From the sequence record SRR20825010_3141: 64,000 nucleotides of DNA; one strand, given 5' to 3'. This document shows positions 21,308 through 28,657 of the stretch, piece after piece; the stretch's first letter is position 1; the number at the start of each line of letters is the position of its first letter. The notes beneath the pieces are model-generated. The model worked only from the letters and a program-made list of their open reading frames with translations. It did not search any database and was not told the origin of the DNA. Position numbers and translations under genes: made by a program.

Positions 21308-22015
21308 ATGGAAGACTTAGATATCCCGCAGTTGGCTGAATACCTGCACATCACTCCCGACCAAGTTCGAAAAATGGTTTCGCGAGGAAACTTGCCGGGC
21401 CGGCGAGTCGGAGGTGACTGGAAATTCAACGAGGCCGAGATCCATCACTGGCTCGAGGAACGAATCGGGTTGAGCGATCAAGGTGAACTCGATCAAGTTC
21501 GAGCGGTATTGCATCGTCGATCAGAGGCCCCGCCGCATACTTTGGCAGAGATCTGTCCTGTGGAGTTGGTTTCCAACCCGTTTGTTGCCAGGACTCGTGG
21601 CAGCGTGATTCGTAATATGTGCGAACTAGCCAGTCGAACGGGCATGCTATGGGACGCACCCGCGATGGCCGAAGCGGTCGCGACTCGCGAAAAACTGCAT
21701 CCAACGGCATTGGATTGCGGTGTTGCATTGCTTCACCCGCGTCGTCCGCAAACGTCCATTTTGGCGGAATCAGTGTTGGCGATGGGAATCTGCCCAACGC
21801 CGGTTGCTTTCTCTGACACCGGGCAATTGACCGACATTTTCTTTTTGATCTGCTCTTATGACGACAGTTCGCACTTGCGTATTTTGGCGAAACTGAGCCG
21901 GATCGTCTCCGATGAAGCCTTCCTGGAAGGTGTGCGTGCAAGTGACACGCCGGCAGACGCTTGGGCGATCTTGAACGAAGCCGAGATGTCGCTGGATGAG
22001 AATCACGCTTTCTAA
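21308..22015 (+). CDS. PTS EIIA (Ntr/Fru-type) with N-terminal excisionase-like HTH domain
   Basis: LAEYLHI...LPGRRVGGDWKF HTH, then REKLHPTALDCGVALLHPR (phospho-His) and HLRILAKLSR. Confidence 0.85.
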   Translation: MEDLDIPQLAEYLHITPDQVRKMVSRGNLPGRRVGGDWKFNEAEIHHWLEERIGLSDQGELDQVRAVLHRRSEAPPHTLAEICPVELVSNPFVARTRGSVIRNMCELASRTGMLWDAPAMAEAVATREKLHPTALDCGVALLHPRRPQTSILAESVLAMGICPTPVAFSDTGQLTDIFFLICSYDDSSHLRILAKLSRIVSDEAFLEGVRASDTPADAWAILNEAEMSLDENHAF

Positions 22016-22862
22016 GTCGAACGAATCCTTCAGAGACAATGTCTCCGCTGAGGCGATAGGGAATCAGGCCATTGAAATTCAGGCCGTTGAGAATTCCGAA
22101 TTCGAGCCAGACATCAGTCCGCCATGCATCGTCGCATGGGTGGGCGACTCTTCCAATTCATTGGCATTGCACGCCAAGGCACTTTGCGAGCAGAACGCGG
22201 ATGCGGTCGCGACCTATTCCAGTGTCGCGTCCATGCTGGCTTCGCCGCCGCGACTACCGTTGTCACACGTGTTACTGGCTCAAACCGATCGTTCGCACTT
22301 CATTGGTTCCGATCAAGTCCGTGAGCTGAATCGTGTCGCTCCGAACGCGAAAGTGTTGCGGTGGTTGGGACCGTTGGTGGCTCCTTCGGTTGGATTGCCA
22401 GGGCAAGAAGGTTGGGTTGAGTCGATCGGTTGGCGAGACAGTACGCAAACGCTTCCGTTTTGGTTGGGCGGAGTGGACCGTTCGGCTGACGCGTCGAATT
22501 CGACCCAGGGTTTGATCATCGTTTCTCAATCTTGGGCTATCGCTGATGCCCTGTTCGGGACCGTCGAAGCAATCGCGGGTGAATTGAGCCAGCCAGTCCC
22601 CGTCATGACGTGGCGTCGAGATGGATTGACTCGAGCGGATCGATTTTCCTCCGCACATGTGGTGTGGGACGATTCGGTATGGCGATGTTCAGATGAGAAG
22701 CCTTGCGAGTTGGCGTCCGCTGTGGAAGGTCGCCAATACCGTCACATTTGGATGACTGGAATGGCATCGCCAACGCAAATTGAAAACGCGTATCGATCGG
22801 GAGTGACCGCAGTTTGGAACAAACCAACTCGTCGCGAGTCGATCGAAGCCTTGTGGCGCTGA
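21996..22862 (+). CDS. Hypothetical protein with degenerate receiver-like C-terminal domain
   Basis: VVWDD...IWMTG...AYRSGVTAVWNKP resembles the end of a receiver domain; overlaps or abuts the EIIA gene. Confidence 0.55.
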   Translation: MRITLSKSNESFRDNVSAEAIGNQAIEIQAVENSEFEPDISPPCIVAWVGDSSNSLALHAKALCEQNADAVATYSSVASMLASPPRLPLSHVLLAQTDRSHFIGSDQVRELNRVAPNAKVLRWLGPLVAPSVGLPGQEGWVESIGWRDSTQTLPFWLGGVDRSADASNSTQGLIIVSQSWAIADALFGTVEAIAGELSQPVPVMTWRRDGLTRADRFSSAHVVWDDSVWRCSDEKPCELASAVEGRQYRHIWMTGMASPTQIENAYRSGVTAVWNKPTRRESIEALWR

Positions 22863-23154: not shown

Positions 23155-24909
23155 TTAGCAACCGGTGCAAGGCGATGCACTGACCGTTGCGCCACAGCTT
23201 CCGCAGCCACTGCCGATCGACGGAGCCGATTGGTAATGGATTGGGGTGCTGCATCCGCTTGCTCCGCTACCGCCCATGATGACCGATGGTCCCACGTTGA
23301 TGGCTGGTCCGGATTGATAACCGCCCATAGCAGCTGGTTCAGCACAAGGCGTGAAGGATTCTTCCACCAAGGTCGGGACCATCTTGCAGACTTGGACCTT
23401 CTTTTCCTTTGTCACGGTGACAGGAACACTGACGGTGTACTCCTCAACCACTTGCTCGGCGACTTGGTCGTAACGAGTGGTTGTGTAAGGTTCGACGGTG
23501 TATTCAGGAACGTTGTAAGTGAAGCTGACTTCCTTTGTACGTTCTTCTGTCTTGTAGGTGACGTAGGGAATCGTTTCCGTTTTGGTGACCGAGGTGTAGG
23601 TCAGTTGTTTGCGAATGCGAGTCCGAGTTTCTTCGTTGTACTGAACTTCCTTGCGAGTACGTGTGCGAGTTTCGTCCACGTACTGGACAACCTGCTTTGA
23701 TCCGGTGCGGGTTTCAGGTTGGTAAACGATGGTCGTGCACTCGTAGGGGACCTGGGTCGCTTGTTGTTCGTACACGGTGTAATTCACCACTTGCGACTCG
23801 GTCGTGCTGGTTGTGACAGGCACTTCTTCGGTCACAACGTTGGGGACCCAAACGCGTTTGGTGATGGTGCTGGTTGTCGATCCGCAAGCGGTCGATGCAG
23901 GGGCTGAGTACGAGACTCCGCCACCGCAACCGGCGTAGGTTTGTCCGTACACGGTGCCGCATCCGCCACACTTGGAAACGCAACCGCCACATGAGCGGCA
24001 TCCGCAAGCACGACGTCCGCAAGATCCACCACAAGCAGAGCCGACCGACGAAGTCGATCCGCATCCGCCAACGTAAGTGACATTGGTCGCAACGGGTGCT
24101 GAAGCAACTTCAACGACTTGTTCTTCCCAGTGACCGTAATCTTTGGTGACTGTTTGCATGGTCGTCTTTGGCACAGCGACTTCGATCGTGCGACTCTTGG
24201 TGACTGGAACAGCGTTGACGACTGTTCGAGTCTTTTGAGTCGTCACGGCTTGTGGCACGTTGACGGTGTAAGTGAAAGTCTCGTCGACCAACTTTGGCAC
24301 CTTAACCGTGTACGTTTCAGGAACGTCGACCAGGGTTGGGACACGAACGGTGTACTCTTCCGGAATTTCGGACCACTGAGGCACCGACTCGGTGACTTCG
24401 ACTTGCTTCTCTTCCTTCACGGGAACCAAAACCGAGTAGGTGATCGTCTTCGTGTCCGTCTTCGGCACGTTGACCACTTTGGTGCGGTACTTTTCTTCGG
24501 TCACTGGAACCGTCTTGTAGACCGTCTTGGTGCGGAAGCGAGTTTCCGGTTGGCTTTCGGTCACGTTGACCATGCGGGATTCGGTCACATAGGTCGGCTT
24601 CATGACGACGCGATAACCGACGACAGGTTCGCAAATGGTTTCGCGAGCAGGAACCGACGAGGTGACAACCGAACCGCCCATCACCGATGGGCCGCTGCTG
24701 TAAACCACGCCCGTCGAATAGGTTTGGCTGGGGACGACGTAGCCTTGGCCGCAACCAATTGCGCCGCCGCAACCGCTGCTGACGACGGGTGCTGAAACGC
24801 CGCACGGATCGGAGCATCCGCCGCACGGAACGCATTGTGCCATGGCGGTAGCCACCATGGAGGCGAAGCATGCCGCGGCAATGCTCGCAAAAGTGGATCC
24901 AAACTTCAC
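23155..24909 (-). CDS. Secreted YTV-repeat, Cys-rich planctomycete envelope/structural protein
   Basis: GTG 24909 behind GAGGA; signal peptide ending AMA|Q; YTVxVP repeats with a 14-aa period; Cys/Gly-rich N-terminal, central and C-terminal blocks. Confidence 0.8.
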   Translation of the reverse strand: MKFGSTFASIAAACFASMVATAMAQCVPCGGCSDPCGVSAPVVSSGCGGAIGCGQGYVVPSQTYSTGVVYSSGPSVMGGSVVTSSVPARETICEPVVGYRVVMKPTYVTESRMVNVTESQPETRFRTKTVYKTVPVTEEKYRTKVVNVPKTDTKTITYSVLVPVKEEKQVEVTESVPQWSEIPEEYTVRVPTLVDVPETYTVKVPKLVDETFTYTVNVPQAVTTQKTRTVVNAVPVTKSRTIEVAVPKTTMQTVTKDYGHWEEQVVEVASAPVATNVTYVGGCGSTSSVGSACGGSCGRRACGCRSCGGCVSKCGGCGTVYGQTYAGCGGGVSYSAPASTACGSTTSTITKRVWVPNVVTEEVPVTTSTTESQVVNYTVYEQQATQVPYECTTIVYQPETRTGSKQVVQYVDETRTRTRKEVQYNEETRTRIRKQLTYTSVTKTETIPYVTYKTEERTKEVSFTYNVPEYTVEPYTTTRYDQVAEQVVEEYTVSVPVTVTKEKKVQVCKMVPTLVEESFTPCAEPAAMGGYQSGPAINVGPSVIMGGSGASGCSTPIHYQSAPSIGSGCGSCGATVSASPCTGC

Positions 24910-25155
24910 TGGTGAAATCCTCAAAGAGTCATAAACAACGATGGAAACGGATGCCAATCGAAGTCCGACGGCACACGTGAAGGGTGTGAATCATTTCAGT
25001 GCGAGCAGCGCCAAACCGGACAGTTGTCGTTCAAAAGACATTGCTCGGAGCATTCACGCAGCACCCCAGGGGGGGCGAGGCTGCTACTCTGTCGCACCAG
25101 ATTAGATCGGGTCTAGAAGGTTACAATCGTTCAGGTGGTAAAAAAGTGCCTATTT

Positions 25156-25449: not shown

Positions 25450-26835
25450 ATGAACGCCGTGTTTGATTCTCGCCCTTGGGCCGTCCGAGTTGGAATTTCT
25501 GCTTTTGCCGCGTTTTGCTGGATCAACGCCTCGGCAACATTCGCGGCAAAGCCCGGACAACCCGTGGTCGCTCGCGTTGAAATGCAATTCGCGAAGGAGG
25601 ACAAAGTCGTTGACGTCATCGCGAAAGGTGATTTGTTGACGGTGGTGGAAGATCGCGGAGAAGACTACGTGATCGTGACGCACGATGGGACTCGCGGTGC
25701 CGTCGACAAGGTCAACGCGGTCGAATTGGCGGAATCGACCGGCATCTACACCGATCTGATCGAGGAGTTTCCTGAAGAAGGCCGCTACCACACGCTTCGA
25801 GCGTCAGCCTGGTGGGCTTTGGGAGAGCAGGAAAAGGCGATGGCGGACTTCAACGAAGCCATTGAAAAGGGCTACGAAGAAGCCCACGCGTACAGCAGCC
25901 GAGGACTTTTCTATGCCGCTCGCGGAGAACATGACGCCGCAATCAAAGACTACGAGCGAGCGTTGAAGCTCGATCCCGAAGACATCACTCCGATCATCAA
26001 CCGGGCAGCCGTTCGAATGGCTCAGCGTGAATTCGAAGCGGCAATCGGCGACTACACCGAGGCATTGGAAGTTCGCGAAGGCAACGCAGGGCTGCTTCGC
26101 CAGCGGGCTTTAGCGTACAAGTCCGCGGGTGAAATGGAAAAAGCGATTCAGGATTACGATGCGATCGTGGACGACAATCCCGAGGACGTCGCCGCGATCA
26201 TGGGCCGCGGTTACATCCGTTTTCAGCAACACGAGTACGCGGCCGCTGCTGCCGATTTCTCCGCAGCTTTGGAGCTGAATGAGAAAGACCCGGTGGCTTG
26301 GAACAACCGGGGCTACAACCGTTATCAGCTCGGCAAAGCCAAGGAAGCATTGTCGGACTACGAAAAAGCCATAGAACTGGCGCCCGAATACGGTTTGGCC
26401 CACCAAAATCGAGCTTGGTTGTTAGCGACCACCGACGATGAATCGCTGCGGGATGCGGATGCCGCTCTGGAAGCCGCCAAGAAGGCGTGCGAACTGAATG
26501 GCTACGGAAACGTCAGTGACCTTTCAGCTCTCGCGGCTGCACTGGCCGCGCAGGGTGAATTTAAGGAAGCGGTTGGCTGGCAAGAGAAAGTGGTCGAGTC
26601 GGCTCCCGAGGATGCGAAGGAATTTGCTGGCAAAATCCTCGATCGTTACCGCGCCGGGAAGCCCTATATCGCTGATCCCGCCGCGGCAGAGAAGGCTGAG
26701 CGTGCGGCGGCCGAGTTCGAGGCCAAGAAGAAGGTGGAGAAAGAAAACGCAGCCGCAAAGAAGGCTGCGGCCAAACAATTGGCAGAGGAAGCCGAAAAGG
26801 ACGCCAAGGCAACCGGCCTGGAAAAGGCAGAGTAG
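25450..26835 (+). CDS. Exported tetratricopeptide repeat protein with N-terminal SH3-like domain
   Basis: Signal peptide; multiple TPR units (AYSSRG, AWNNRG, AIxDYxxAL); NRAWLLAT motif; Ala/Glu/Lys-rich tail. Confidence 0.88.
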   Translation: MNAVFDSRPWAVRVGISAFAAFCWINASATFAAKPGQPVVARVEMQFAKEDKVVDVIAKGDLLTVVEDRGEDYVIVTHDGTRGAVDKVNAVELAESTGIYTDLIEEFPEEGRYHTLRASAWWALGEQEKAMADFNEAIEKGYEEAHAYSSRGLFYAARGEHDAAIKDYERALKLDPEDITPIINRAAVRMAQREFEAAIGDYTEALEVREGNAGLLRQRALAYKSAGEMEKAIQDYDAIVDDNPEDVAAIMGRGYIRFQQHEYAAAAADFSAALELNEKDPVAWNNRGYNRYQLGKAKEALSDYEKAIELAPEYGLAHQNRAWLLATTDDESLRDADAALEAAKKACELNGYGNVSDLSALAAALAAQGEFKEAVGWQEKVVESAPEDAKEFAGKILDRYRAGKPYIADPAAAEKAERAAAEFEAKKKVEKENAAAKKAAAKQLAEEAEKDAKATGLEKAE

Positions 26836-27136
26836 CTGCCGAACGTCGCAGACGTGACTTCTCCCGCACGACCTCCGATTTGTGGGGAAAGCACACTGCG
26901 TTAGTGCTGAAGCCGGTTTCGAAATTTGCGTGCTTGCAACTTTTTTCGATTTTCTCGTCAGAAACGCTCAAGTTTTGGCGGATGGCCGATTCAATTGGGG
27001 TTGCCGTGGTTCGGGAGGATGTCCGACCATCGCGCGACGGACACGAAGTGGTTTCGTCGTTGCCAAGGATGGTGATGGGGAGCTCAGGGACACTTTGTGC
27101 TGATTGAACTATTCCATCGTCCAAGGAGGGACGAGA

Positions 27137-28657
27137 GTGCAAACGACTCATCAACTGGCTGGCGTTCTCGACCGATCACGGCAAATTCGTTGGTTTGCCC
27201 GGCACCTCATGATTCAGTTCATGACGGTCTGCTTTGCCGTCTCCGCTCTCGCGTTCTCCGCTTCGGCGAACGATGCCGTGTTGCTGGAGTTCTCATCGTC
27301 TCAGTGCGGACCATGTTTGGCGATGAAGCCGATCGTGTCCGAGTTGATTGCTCGAGGCGTTCCTGTTCGCCAAGTCAACGTTGACAACGAAGCACACCTG
27401 ACTCGCCGCTTTGGAATTCGCAGCACCCCGACCTATGTGGTGCTTCGCGAAGGCAAAGAAGTCACGCGATTGTTGGGAGTTCAAACGGTCAGCGAACTCA
27501 CTGCCGCACTGAACCAATCTGCCGCCGGTCCCCTGATCCCCACACGAAGTGCGTCGTCCGAGCAAGCGTGGAACGAACCACAAACCCGGTTGGCCCCTCT
27601 GACCTCCGGACAAAACGCAGTCGACCGCAGCCCACGTCGTGCCATTCGAAAAGAACGTGCCGACCGAGATTCAGAATTTGCCGGTGGTTGGCAATCGATG
27701 AACAACCAAGCGGCCGGATCATCCGGGCAATTGGTGAGTTCGCAAGACGCGGCGATGGAGCCGATGCCCAGCATGTCGCTGGCCGATGCAATTGAAAACG
27801 CGAAAGCAGCGACGGTGCGTTTGCGAGTGTTTGACGGTCGTGGATATGGGGCTGGTACAGGGACGATCATTGATACCAACGGCGACGAAGCCCTGGTGCT
27901 GACATGCGGTCACTTGTTCCGCGATGGCGAAGGCAAAGATCGAATCGAAGTGGACTTGTTCGTCGCTGGCGAAGTCCGAACCGTTCCGGGACAAGTCGTC
28001 GACTATGACGCGGGCGATCGAGACATCGGATTGGTTGCGATACGACCTGGTTTCGCAGTCACTCCCGTGAAGGTGATTCAAGAAGGCGAAAAGGTCAAAG
28101 TGGGTCAAACTGCGTTTAGCTTTGGATGTGACCGCGGCGACGATCCGAGTCGCCGGGACACCCGCATCACCGGTGTCGACAAATACAATCAAAACCTCGG
28201 TATGTCCAACTTGGAAATCGATGGTGCTCCGATCGATGGCCGCAGCGGCGGTGGTTTGTTCGACGACCGCGGTGTCTTGATCGGCGTCTGCAACGCAGCG
28301 GATTACAAGTCCGACTTGGGAATCTACACCGGGCCTGGATCTGTCCATTGGCAATTGGAACGCATTCAACTGGGGCGTTTGTATCAAGGAACCCCCGTCG
28401 CTCCTGTCGCCAACCAGTTGGCCACAACTCAGCCCGCATCGAACGGATTTGCCAGCGGACCAGCACTCAACGCTTCTGACCAGCACGGAGCCAGTGCTGC
28501 ATTGGCTGGTCCAGCCACGCCGTCGGCTGGAACCGCGACTGAAATGATCGTGATCTTGCGAAATCCTGACGGGCAACAGCGGGAACAAGTGATGACGTTG
28601 AACAGTCCCGATGCGGATCTGGTAAGACAGATTCGCCAAGCCGCGTTGAGCCGGTAG
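27137..28657 (+). CDS. Thioredoxin-domain plus trypsin-like serine protease fusion
   Basis: CGPC thioredoxin motif with TPT; protease triad LTCGH / DIGL / GRSGGG; GTG behind GGAGG. Confidence 0.82.
   Translation: MQTTHQLAGVLDRSRQIRWFARHLMIQFMTVCFAVSALAFSASANDAVLLEFSSSQCGPCLAMKPIVSELIARGVPVRQVNVDNEAHLTRRFGIRSTPTYVVLREGKEVTRLLGVQTVSELTAALNQSAAGPLIPTRSASSEQAWNEPQTRLAPLTSGQNAVDRSPRRAIRKERADRDSEFAGGWQSMNNQAAGSSGQLVSSQDAAMEPMPSMSLADAIENAKAATVRLRVFDGRGYGAGTGTIIDTNGDEALVLTCGHLFRDGEGKDRIEVDLFVAGEVRTVPGQVVDYDAGDRDIGLVAIRPGFAVTPVKVIQEGEKVKVGQTAFSFGCDRGDDPSRRDTRITGVDKYNQNLGMSNLEIDGAPIDGRSGGGLFDDRGVLIGVCNAADYKSDLGIYTGPGSVHWQLERIQLGRLYQGTPVAPVANQLATTQPASNGFASGPALNASDQHGASAALAGPATPSAGTATEMIVILRNPDGQQREQVMTLNSPDADLVRQIRQAALSR

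Follow-up and report, generated by a model that had tools for sequence, protein, structure and literature searches.

An open reading frame on the minus strand of the 64,000-nucleotide stretch analyzed here (sequence record SRR20825010_3141, the window) encodes a YTV-repeat protein, hereafter the query, whose two halves mirror each other in sequence, which raises the question of what fold this symmetry reflects and what such a fold would do in the cell. A first-pass annotation had proposed that the chain folds back on itself as one two-stranded antiparallel ribbon in which the indices of facing residues sum to 647 (i + j = 647), and the covariation among homologs, the balance of arm lengths among relatives, and the AF2 models all agree with that proposal. 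Taken as a whole, we consider it likely that this secreted protein of a Rhodopirellula-type planctomycete is a giant two-stranded beta-hairpin that serves as a disulfide-linked envelope strut. The parts of this explanation carry different weights: the paired-arm fold is highly probable, the pairing of the two arms within one chain rather than between chains is quite probable, and we lean toward the disulfide-linked strut role.

The gene and the layout of its product

The whole ORF occupies 23155..24957 on the minus strand, as do all parts of the gene described below, and encodes 600 aa from a TTG, with its stop codon at 23155..23157. Translation probably begins not at this TTG but at the GTG of codon 17 (window position 24909), which would correct the 600-aa TTG ORF to a gene at 23155..24909 that encodes 584 aa. 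This GTG is preceded, 8 nt upstream, by a GAGGA motif, and P0002, which is 97% identical to the query, begins at the same codon and is also 584 aa long. Given that the start is probably this GTG, the true numbering would be that of the first-pass annotation minus 16, with a mirror constant of S = 615; residue numbers throughout are those of the 600-aa ORF. The signal peptide noticed in the first pass is present as a probable Sec signal peptide at residues 17-40 (24838..24909), ending in AMA before Q41, as judged by eye from the hydrophobicity profile and the N termini of orthologs. Once it is removed, the secreted product would serve as a structural component of the planctomycete cell envelope.

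The N-terminal Cys/Gly-rich tail (residues 41-108; 24634..24837; 6 Cys, 13 Gly) is of low confidence and unstructured in the AF2 model, and together with the C-terminal Cys/Gly-rich tail (residues 539-600; 23158..23343; 5 Cys, 13 Gly) it is predicted to form the base end of the rod. The N arm (residues 109-285; 24103..24633) starts with C109 and continues as a beta-strand over residues 112-285, and the C arm (residues 362-538; 23344..23874) is a continuous beta-strand over residues 362-535 followed by C538; both were delimited by DSSP of the AF2 model, proline parity, and covariation. The N arm is composed of 14-aa YTV-type repeats and holds 14 prolines, every one at an odd position, and the C arm is composed of 14-aa ETRTR/Y-type repeats, with prolines at even positions and with the orphan cysteines C407 and C524. 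The span originally given for the symmetric region, 23344..24633, has the codons of C538 and C109 as its exact ends. Between the arms lies a Cys/Gly-rich linker at the hairpin tip (residues 286-361; 23875..24102), which is modeled with low confidence. The description of the center and both tails as Cys/Gly rich was borne out, given that the 76-aa linker contains 11 Cys and 19 Gly and that family medians agree; the two 177-aa arms hold only 1 and 3 Cys. Two motifs flank the tip. In DYGHWE (residues 273-278; 24124..24141), G275 is invariant and W277 nearly so, and in VWVPN (residues 369-373; 23839..23853), W370 and P372 are invariant. W370 partners W277, and P372 stands opposite G275 at the strand break; the sole break in the modeled N strand, at 274-275, lies inside DYGHWE, and the equivalent motif of the short relative P0237 breaks likewise.

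Membership in the YTV family was confirmed by a match to Pfam PF07639 (33.6 bits against a cut-off of 21; E 4e-8) in two stretches, the best of which is at residues 174-211. The Pfam model, with 43 positions, covers a few of the N-arm repeats and misses the two-arm layout, the C-arm repeat type, and the tip motifs. NCBIfam has no family for the query or for P0237 (E <= 0.01).

Mirror symmetry in the query and its relatives

All 16 of the 16 residue pairs on which the proposed symmetry was originally based have the residues given for them and sum to 647. Among the 180 registers scanned (S = 560-739), S = 647 scored highest, with 8 Pro/Tyr pairs, 10 opposite-charge pairs, 1 like-charge pair, one C/C pair, and one W/W pair. 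Side lobes at 633, 661, and 675, which arise because of the 14-aa period, contain 6, 5, and 7 Pro/Tyr pairs, with 5-8 like-charge clashes. When the C arm was shuffled, the probability of at least 8 Pro/Tyr pairs was 1e-4, falling to 0/20,000 with parity kept, and the probability of the charge excess was 0.006. Over 114 homologs, the register S = 647 brought together 1180 opposite-charge versus 68 like-charge pairs, and like-charge pairs numbered 123-881 at registers 633, 643, 645, 649, 651, and 661. The 14-aa spacing and its mirrored 16-aa irregularity (P235-P251 and Y396-Y412), both recognized in the first pass, are kept in 110/114 aligned homologs; of the other four, three have one extra residue in one segment and one is truncated.

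The prolines and the two faces of the arms follow the same register. Across the 114 sequences, prolines fall at 1309 odd versus 2 even positions in the N arm and at 1129 even versus 99 odd positions in the C arm, a parity that is complementary between the arms. Face compositions match on both arms, one face being rich in Thr/Pro/Tyr and the other in Val plus Glu/Arg/Lys, and nearly invariant prolines line both outer edges at ~12% of outward-facing positions. With hydrogen-bond parity deduced from stereochemistry, not measured, prolines would occur only where the backbone NH faces away from the partner strand, and they would be tolerated because the NH at those positions points off that strand. 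The prolines probably cap both edges against side-by-side aggregation.

The single antidiagonal predicted for the contact map was recovered by mean-field DCA, the depth of which was small overall (Meff 56-150). On 114 orthologs (Meff 56), S = 647 had a mean z of 8.2 among 167 antidiagonals, the neighboring antidiagonals 649 and 645 had z values of 4.7 and 2.6, and every other was below 1.6. Ten of the top 100 inter-arm pairs lay on S = 647 versus ~0.5 expected (hypergeometric 2e-10). A replicate run in landmark coordinates on 119 non-orthologous relatives of other arm lengths (Meff 99) gave z values at offset 0 of 14.7 measured from the base and 12.8 from the tip, values of ~9-10 at offsets +-2, and nothing at odd offsets; the +-2 side bands are the pattern of antiparallel strands.

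Insertions and deletions are compensated between the arms, as had been suggested as a check of the hairpin. The N-arm span equaled the C-arm span exactly in 236/240 proteins, a count that left out the 112/352 proteins without all four landmarks at >=12 bits, and in the remaining 4/240 the arms differed by one residue. The landmarks (VMxP..TE at the base and DxGHW at the tip of the N arm, VWVPN at the tip and VxVC[KR]MVP at the base of the C arm) were chosen independently per arm by position-weight matrices, which were trained on rows already found balanced, with each landmark scored separately. A cruder regex landmarking gave 84/88 and 147/177 balanced proteins, and the matrices replaced it because the regex misses that were inspected proved to be mis-picked motifs. 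The query has arm spans of 156/156, and the relatives fall into nine arm-span classes: 102 (51 proteins), 112 (2), 116 (26), 130 (28), 144 (4), 156 (120), 158 (3), 172 (1), and 210 (1). The linker between the tip tryptophans (the equivalents of W277 and W370) ranges from 18 to 170 across relatives. Two paralogs in the nearest genome (G001) are balanced too, with constants of 901 and 654. As read from these sequences, an insertion in one arm is matched by one in the other when arm length changes, and the steps are mostly of 14 aa. The length of the rod would then be set genetically, one 14-aa step corresponding to ~4.6 nm.

Predicted structure and alternative arrangements

The AF2 model built from the 114-sequence alignment has DSSP strands at 112-273, 276-285, 362-371, and 374-535, and all of their paired ends sum to 647, in a model of low confidence (mean pLDDT 54.8, pTM 0.35). 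The fold was reproduced in P0237 (297 aa; arm-span class 102), the alignment of which contained no member of the query's arm-length class, with a mean pLDDT of 85.3 (83-85 across five models and 93-98 in the arms) and a pTM of only 0.39. Its strands at 48-157, 160-167, 173-180, and 183-292 all sum to 340, which is the landmark sum of P0237; register in the AF2 models was read from DSSP strand ends. In the proposed fold, residues 112-285 and 362-535 would pair over their whole length as a single antiparallel beta-hairpin. An extended beta-strand rises 3.3-3.4 A per residue, and 174 residues per strand would give a rod of ~57-59 nm. The conserved G/P kink and the W277-W370 pair would close the tip, which would bear a variable Cys/Gly-rich knob, and the base would bear the two Cys/Gly-rich tails.

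Searches for a known counterpart returned little. With the query model, Foldseek gave no match at E <= 0.001 and the best hit of a VIA wide search had a Z of 2.6, and a PDB sequence profile search gave 0 matches at E <= 1. With the P0237 model, Foldseek gave 7 matches at E <= 0.001, each a local match (TM of 0.14 or less) to a long hairpin in a pore or tail protein. Taken together, the Foldseek and VIA searches turned up only such hairpins as structural neighbors, in the phi29 tail, lysenin, aerolysin, epsilon toxin, iota Ib, and the anthrax PA pore. Across the Foldseek, VIA, and PDB profile searches, there is no solved counterpart for a 57-nm core-less two-stranded ribbon.

The proposed disulfide staple at the base, C109-C538, was upheld in its geometry and not in its evolutionary support. 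The two cysteines are in register, and their parity permits a cross-strand disulfide. The pair is present in 90/121 members of the query's arm-length class, and the exact pair is found in only 5/115 members of other classes. Its co-loss appears strong by a Fisher test that ignores kinship (93 both, 13 neither, 7 single; 2e-12) but loses significance when phylogenetically independent pairs are compared (median p 0.25; 3.3 of 7 pairs the same way), and the control 109/407 gives a similar outcome. Following the independent-pairs test, we rejected the co-variation of C109 and C538 as proof of a clamp. Some arm cysteines are conserved without a cysteine opposite, namely, the equivalents of C524 (215/240) and C407 (131/240). 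The cysteine pair 131/261, with positions symmetric about the rod midpoint, co-varies repeatedly, which hints at rod-to-rod disulfides. Given that the orphan arm cysteines are conserved and that 131/261 co-vary, an isolated hairpin would not be the whole story.

We considered whether each 14-aa repeat could instead be a local unit, such as a beta-solenoid rung or a short hairpin, with the i + j symmetry a by-product of two periodic arrays. Both arms are indeed 14-periodic, and the registers 633, 661, and 675 give 5-7 Pro/Tyr pairs, as such arrays would. This reading is nevertheless barely credible, given that 14 residues are too short for a solenoid rung and that intra-arm coupling at |i-j| = 14 is near nil (0.03 and 0.004 versus 0.295 on the antidiagonal). 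The DCA therefore contains no i+-14 solenoid signal, and the local-solenoid contact map that the first-pass annotation had named as speaking against its own proposal was not observed. In addition, the irregular 16-aa unit is mirrored in the other arm, balance also holds for arm lengths whose differences do not fit the 14-aa step (112, 156, and 158), and the AF2 strands are uninterrupted. Covariation and arm balance do not decide which chain supplies the partner, given that both would be equally expected if the N arm of one chain paired with the C arm of another in a swapped dimer or run-on polymer, for which the 76-aa linker of the query is long enough. What makes such pairing improbable is the tip: the tip tryptophans of relatives can be separated by a linker of only 18 residues, a 5-residue loop closes the hairpin of P0237 with high confidence in the AF2 model, and the conserved G/P kink and W/W pair beside the tip resemble a built-in turn module.

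A further possibility concerns what the closed hairpins do with each other, given that two-stranded ribbons are rarely stable alone. Hairpins could join along their edges to build either an extended sheet resembling a fibril or S-layer or a large beta-barrel tube; the sole structural neighbors are long hairpins within oligomeric barrels, and intermolecular contacts are suggested by the conserved orphan cysteines and by the 131/261 pair. We regard this arrangement as unlikely, in that the barrel matches are local (TM 0.14 or less; best VIA Z 2.6), neither face has the hydrophobic character of a membrane-facing stem, and the prolines occupy the outward positions needed for hydrogen bonds to an adjoining hairpin. 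The ortholog DCA map likewise had no second contact diagonal, whether from a fold-back or a rod-rod interface, above z 3.8 (best z 3-3.8 among the many diagonals tested). The Cys-rich ends could also be metal or iron-sulfur sites instead of disulfide cross-linkers, a reading under which the hairpin could still hold and which is suggested by the name "ferredoxin" that NCBI gives several orthologs and by the CxxC-like spacing common in the linker and tails. It is very improbable, however, given that Cys number and linker length vary widely among orthologs (2-16 linker Cys), unlike a fixed cluster site, and that the protein carries a signal peptide and its family has been detected in wall preparations. 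A ferredoxin identity was dropped, as no ferredoxin or other iron-sulfur family matched in Pfam (E <= 1; YTV alone) or NCBIfam (E <= 0.01). The arrangement we favor remains a hairpin closed within one chain, with cysteines that would link it to others.

Wall context, known systems, and significance

The YTV family was found in 20/301 genomes sampled across the phylum and in 0/14 control genomes; by family code, it was present in 2/2 genomes of f1 and 16/16 of f4 (18/18 together), with 2 weak matches in f51. Among named genomes, the 80 best loci all bear Pirellulales- or Planctomycetia-type names, and an ESM Atlas search with P0237, YTV clusters excluded, matched only planctomycete clusters. 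In this genome sample, the family is restricted to Planctomycetia-type planctomycetes. A divergently transcribed TPR protein (25450..26835, plus strand; 461 aa; Pfam TPR families) neighbors the query, and a homolog of it, likewise divergently oriented, lies <=1500 nt upstream of the YTV ortholog in 58/73 loci with enough flank, a conserved placement by which it may be functionally linked to the YTV gene. A thioredoxin/trypsin-like neighbor was dropped as a candidate folding partner, given that it adjoins the ortholog in only 1/80 loci.

YTV proteins are reported as major constituents of Gemmata walls isolated by boiling in 10% SDS (PMC5287468), and wall preparations from R. baltica and Tuwongella also contained them (PMC8567305; PMC12673574). 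In P. limnophila, one of the essential genes restricted to Planctomycetia codes for a YTV protein (PMC10632474). The literature searched, with partial coverage, describes YTV only by its motif, cysteine content, and wall location and gives no fold. We propose an envelope-mesh role because these papers place YTV proteins in walls that resist boiling SDS (PMC5287468; PMC8567305). The Cys-rich ends and some of the orphan arm cysteines would form intermolecular disulfides, and these would join the rods into the covalent, SDS-resistant protein layer of planctomycete walls.

The SasG/Aap E-G5 repeat rods of staphylococci are, like the predicted YTV rod, elongated and mechanically relevant surface rods of tens of nanometers with a beta-sheet one layer thick. 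SasG is monomeric and extended; its small domains (50 and 78 residues) are strung together in a chain and comprise triple-stranded sheets and collagen-like segments, without covalent cross-links (PMC4458895). Unlike SasG, the YTV protein would be a single hairpin of two uninterrupted strands (100-300 residues in the family) with Cys-rich ends. SasG is absent from the Foldseek and VIA matches, no PDB sequence relative was found at E <= 1, and the likeness is one of principle only. The YTV rod can also be likened to the single-layer sheet of Borrelia OspA, which is stable without a hydrophobic core, rich in Thr/Val/Lys/Glu, and solvent exposed on both faces, although the single-layer part of OspA consists of a few short strands between two globular domains, in contrast to a free-standing hairpin of 57 nm. 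The longest hairpins among solved structures are the stems of pore-forming toxins and phage tails (lysenin, aerolysin, the anthrax PA pore, and the phi29 tail), which are 3-5 times shorter than the predicted YTV hairpin and occur only inside oligomeric barrels, with one side facing the membrane or lumen. A beta-pore-forming toxin stem was rejected as an identity for the query, as its faces are not hydrophobic, prolines line both edges, and the matches are local (TM 0.14 or less). Within the PVC superphylum, a functional parallel is offered by OmcA, OmcB, and MOMP of Chlamydia, whose disulfide-linked envelope layer gives rigidity; to our knowledge, these families are unrelated to YTV, and we know of no giant hairpin among them.

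A broader proposal, which we offer tentatively and regard as rather doubtful, is that YTV proteins represent a new class of wall polymer. They would be length-quantized two-stranded beta-ribbon rulers (~40-100 nm in ~4.6-nm steps), with several fixed lengths per cell, welded by end-knob disulfides and by specific antiparallel rod-to-rod disulfides, of which the repeatedly co-gained C131/C261 may be one, into a covalent sacculus of protein, which in Planctomycetia would complement peptidoglycan or take its place. If the hairpin is correct, no known protein would have longer beta-strands than its continuous ones of 100-300 residues. It would then stand as an extreme form of beta-structure, with apparently proline-protected edges and no hydrophobic core, and protein designers could take it as a natural model for rigid nanoscale rods whose length can be programmed. 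The source of planctomycete wall strength has been debated for decades, and YTV proteins are signature components of these walls. The proposed architecture, a core-less ribbon with its length coded by matched repeat numbers, would turn the question of wall strength into a testable one.

Two arms mirrored about a single register

The YTV gene (window 23155..24957, minus strand; 600 aa from a TTG) encodes a protein whose sole Pfam match is YTV (PF07639; 33.6 bits, cut-off 21). Translation probably begins not at the ORF-track TTG at 24957 but at the GTG of ORF codon 17 (window 24909), giving a protein of 584 aa, because this GTG has a GAGGA motif 8 nt ahead of it and is where P0002, a 97% identical relative of 584 aa, begins. 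From the GTG, the signal peptide proposed in the first-pass annotation is present in typical, clean form and ends AMA|Q. We keep the ORF numbering; true protein numbering is ORF minus 16.

The first-pass annotation had noted complementary residues whose indices sum to 647, over a stretch that spans exactly the C538 codon to the C109 codon, and had read the chain as one two-stranded antiparallel ribbon. All 16 pairs that it named have the residues given, with indices adding up to 647. This register scored highest among 180, with 8 Pro/Tyr, 10 opposite-charge, and 1 like-charge pair in addition to the C/C (C109/C538, at the base) and W/W (W277/W370, at the tip) pairs. Since both arms are 14-periodic, registers 14 apart from 647 still hold 5 to 7 Pro/Tyr pairs, yet they carry 5 to 8 like-charge clashes. 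Eight Pro/Tyr pairs were reached at a frequency of 1e-4 when the C arm was shuffled and in 0 of 20,000 shuffles with parity preserved, and the charge excess had a p of ~0.006 by shuffle test. Over 114 aligned homologs, the register holds 1180 opposite-charge versus 68 like-charge pairs, and six other tested registers hold 123 to 881 like-charge pairs. The pair sums, the register scan, the shuffles, and the homolog charge counts together therefore establish that the mirror symmetry is real, well beyond chance.

The two arms are also strictly matched in length. A word-indexed search with residues 100-547 matched 148 proteins (E <= 0.001). For most of them, coverage of the query exceeded 94% and identity was 42-97%; 114 of the 148 formed the homolog alignment. 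The 14-aa period with its mirrored 16-aa irregularity, described from this one protein, extends to the aligned homologs: 110 of the 114 keep the query lengths in all sixteen arm segments between Pro/Tyr/Trp/Cys landmarks, the mirrored 16-residue units included. The distance between W277 and W370 ranges from 46 to 170 in the same 114. Searching cluster representatives exhaustively with HMMER gave 290 matches at E <= 0.001, and a search seeded with P0175 (a 388-aa relative) gave 248, adding shorter and longer relatives. The query and these relatives have a common tail-to-tail plan: signal peptide, Cys-rich tail, N arm to DxGHW, Cys-rich linker, VWVPN, C arm to VxVC[KR]MVP, and Cys-rich tail.

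With a first regex landmarking, the C arm equaled the N arm minus 2 in 84/88 proteins; three of the four exceptions were mis-picked motifs, and P0115 has a genuine one-residue difference. A looser regex found 147/177 balanced. The final landmarking used a position-weight matrix per landmark, trained on already balanced rows, with each landmark located on its own arm independently of the other; of 352 proteins, the 240 with all four landmarks at >= 12 bits were counted and the other 112 left out. The arms were exactly equal in 236 of the 240, and the remaining four were off by one residue. The equal-arm classes (proteins in parentheses) are 102 (51), 112 (2), 116 (26), 130 (28), 144 (4), 156 (120), 158 (3), 172 (1), and 210 (1) residues, so the compensating arm indels that the first-pass annotation had suggested looking for are found across nine length classes. 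The nearest genome, G001, which shares 65% of words with the window, carries an ortholog at 99% identity and two paralogs balanced with constants of their own (123+778 = 407+494 = 901; 91+563 = 303+351 = 654). In a fourth, more divergent Cys-rich paralog, the tips sum to 747 and the arms are ~190 residues, with a base landmark ambiguous by ~6 residues.

Strand pairing from residue patterns, covariation, and models

N-arm prolines in the 114 sequences occupy 1309 odd and 2 even positions; C-arm prolines occupy 1129 even and 99 odd positions, and the query's odd-position C-arm proline, P537, lies past the strand end. Because the sum 647 is odd, odd N positions lie opposite even C positions, and therefore all prolines fall in one cross-strand pair class. 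An antiparallel ribbon of two strands can hold proline only in the non-hydrogen-bonded class, where the NH points outward, and such prolines also stop further strands from docking on the edges, an idea known as negative design. One face of both arms is made up of Thr (31/27%), Pro (12/11%), Tyr, and Ser, with T-T and P-Y as frequent cross-strand pairs; the other is made up of Val (35/28%), Glu, Arg, and Lys, with V-E, V-R, V-K, and V-V. Both the proline parity and the composition of the faces agree with a ribbon of two strands.

The arms co-evolve residue by residue in antiparallel register. Mean-field direct coupling analysis (DCA) was applied to those arm columns of the 114 orthologs that are free of indels (Meff 56). 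With inter-arm pairs ranked by coupling, i+j = 647 accounted for 6 among the first 50, 10 among the first 100 (hypergeometric 2e-10), and 16 among the first 200, against 183 among all 33,489 that are possible. The single antidiagonal near 647 anticipated by the first-pass annotation thus appeared, with antidiagonal means of z = 8.2 at 647, 4.7 at 649, and 2.6 at 645 and <1.6 at the other 164. An independent replicate drew only on the 119 proteins whose arms have other lengths (Meff 99), with positions counted from the landmarks. Coupling peaked at the predicted partner (offset 0), with z = 14.7 on the base side and 12.8 on the tip side; z was ~9-10 at offsets of +-2 and ~3-4 at +-4, and odd offsets gave nothing, which is the expectation for two antiparallel strands in fixed register.

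AF2 likewise predicts a ribbon, paired in the register that the first-pass annotation had proposed. Folded on the homolog alignment, the query had a mean pLDDT of 54.8 and a pTM of 0.35 (arms 52-79, tails and linker <50); DSSP assigned strands 112-273, 276-285, 362-371, and 374-535, with every paired end summing to 647. Because confidence in this model was low, we also folded P0237, a 297-aa relative with 102-residue arms and 18 residues between its tip tryptophans, on an alignment of 114 relatives that lacks the query's class. The mean pLDDT was 85.3 (83.4-85.3 over five models; arms 93-98) and the pTM 0.39. Its strands (48-157, 160-167, 173-180, and 183-292, with a 5-residue loop) have ends that all sum to 340, which is its landmark sum (59+281 = 161+179). 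In both models, the lone strand break lies at the invariant G of DxGHW opposite the invariant P of VWVPN, beside the W/W pair, and this looks like a conserved tip module.

The rival folds can be weighed against these data. A solenoid of 14-residue rungs would have the period seen in both arms, but it is unsupported because within-arm coupling at |i-j| = 14 is 0.03 and 0.004 versus 0.295 on the antidiagonal; within the arms, only |i-j| = 2 is raised (0.18-0.21). Assembly of the hairpins into a barrel or sheet is a rival that touches on the structural matches: Foldseek and VIA-align returned only long hairpins, each part of the stem of an oligomeric barrel (phi29 and Andhra phage tails, lysenin, aerolysin, epsilon toxin, iota Ib, and the anthrax PA pore), with TM-scores <= 0.14 and a best Z of 2.6, and the edge prolines are of the kind that stops strands from docking. 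The family profile matched nothing among PDB sequences at E <= 1. With only such local matches, a free-standing analogue is, as judged by comparing models and profiles, absent among the solved structures searched. Pairing of the arms in trans would place the same register between two chains; we consider pairing within one chain probable. That the arms pair with each other in this fold at all we regard as very probable, and arm balance, covariation, proline parity, and AF2 all support the one-ribbon reading.

Cysteines at the ends and along the arms

As first described, the centre and C terminus are rich in Cys and Gly (linker 11% Cys and 22% Gly; C tail 13% and 19%), and the arms are Cys poor in the 156-residue class (0.7% and 1.5%). 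The mature query chain has 6 Cys in the N tail, 1 in the N arm, 11 in the linker, 3 in the C arm, and 5 in the C tail. C109/C538, proposed earlier as a disulfide staple at the base, is the only in-register Cys/Cys pair of the arm region and lies three residues outside the strands at proline parity, a site type that allows cross-strand disulfides. The pair is present in 90/121 members of the 156/157 class, and the same exact pair is present in 5/115 of other classes. Its joint state (93 both, 13 neither, 7 single) gives a Fisher value of 2e-12 that ignores kinship; a phylogeny-aware test gave 7 independent pairs, 3.3 changing the same way, and a median p of 0.25, and the control pair C109/C407 behaved alike. 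The geometry of the staple thus stood and its covariation did not, and a putative C109-C538 clamp is plausible. Orphan arm cysteines are conserved without a Cys opposite, the C524 equivalent in 215/240 proteins and the C407 equivalent in 131/240.

Separately, N-arm positions 131 and 261 (codons at window 24565..24567 and 24175..24177, minus strand), both at proline parity, are cysteines in orthologs and N and A in the query. They are 130 residues apart (~43 nm) and form the strongest DCA pair; C261 occurs in all 32 sequences bearing C131, and the two gain or lose Cys together on the tree (14 independent pairs, 11.6 the same way, 0 opposite, median p 5e-4). Residues 131 and 261 of one straight hairpin cannot meet. 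Their midpoint, 196, is near the rod midpoint of 198.5, which would be compatible with a pair of antiparallel rods; the ortholog DCA showed no second, continuous interface.

Gene neighborhood, distribution, and a proposed role in the wall

The YTV gene is monocistronic, between convergent and divergent neighbors. Upstream and divergent lies a gene for a TPR protein with an N-terminal hydrophobic segment (window 25450..26835, plus strand). In 58 of the 73 loci with sufficient flanking sequence, a divergent TPR homolog (44-94% identity) lies upstream of the YTV ortholog within 1500 nt, at a median gap of 475 nt, so on gene order the two are a conserved pair; the TPR protein may help in assembly or be a partner under shared regulation. 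A thioredoxin domain fused to a trypsin-like peptidase domain (window 27104..28657, plus strand) is encoded ~2 kb from the YTV gene; its adjacency to a disulfide-rich wall protein is probably coincidental, since it recurs in 1/80 ortholog loci. A 235-aa helix-turn-helix and PTS EIIA-2 fusion (window 21308..22015, plus strand) and a 288-aa ORF that matches no family and overlaps it by 20 nt (window 21996..22862, plus strand) are kept only in the two closest Rhodopirellula loci (2/80).

Of 301 genomes drawn from across the phylum, 20 carry the family; none of 14 control genomes does. Named genomes contain 242 related loci, and the best 80 of them are all Pirellulales-type and include Rhodopirellula europaea 6C (97%), Aporhodopirellula, Novipirellula, Rubripirellula, Roseimaritima, Aureliella, and Pirellula. 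Two further G001 loci were observed. L089 (G001:C1:5558500-5562500) has a 591-aa frame matching the YTV model, Thr/Gln/Val/Pro-rich with 4 Cys and repeat arrays flanking a Gly/Pro-rich centre, which may be a cysteine-poor version of the two-arm plan. L090 (G001:C1:3742000-3745000) has a YTV-like 240-aa frame with ~47 residues of N-arm-type repeats, a short turn-like stretch, and ~49 residues of C-arm type without Cys-rich ends, which could represent either a miniature hairpin or a remnant.

NCBI names several orthologs (P0003, P0004, P0005, P0008, P0016, and others) "ferredoxin"; the query has no match to a ferredoxin model in Pfam or NCBIfam, and the label seems to be an artefact of ends rich in CxxC. 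A rival use of those ends is metal binding, to be set beside the disulfides of the reading that we favor. In that reading, the mature protein would be a rod of ~57-59 nm (174 residues at 3.3-3.4 Å), and by the same arithmetic the G001 paralogs would form rods of ~76 and ~100 nm and the short relatives rods of ~40 nm. Edge prolines would keep the rods from side-by-side aggregation, and the Cys/Gly-rich knobs at tip and base, perhaps with the orphan arm cysteines, would link rods by disulfides into an SDS-resistant wall layer. We put forward the disulfide clamp and the cross-linked mesh as hypotheses, and we lean only lightly toward the strut-and-mesh role in the wall.

YTV proteins are known as cysteine-rich, Planctomycetia-restricted wall components of R. 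baltica, Gemmata, and Tuwongella, and no fold is given in the available portions of these four sources (PMC8567305, PMC12673574, PMC5287468, PMC3343278). A literature search on planctomycete YTV or wall-protein hairpins or AlphaFold models found nothing relevant, with Hieu et al. 2008, Mahajan et al. 2020, supplements, and AlphaFold DB outside its scope. The nearest parallel in principle is SasG, a single-layer beta-sheet rod described as monomeric and extended, with triple-stranded sheets in 50- and 78-residue domains and without covalent cross-links (PMC4458895). The YTV family and its wall location were thus known already; what appears new is the predicted two-arm hairpin architecture, undescribed in the literature searched and without a solved counterpart, that we group with the core-less beta rods of bacterial envelopes.
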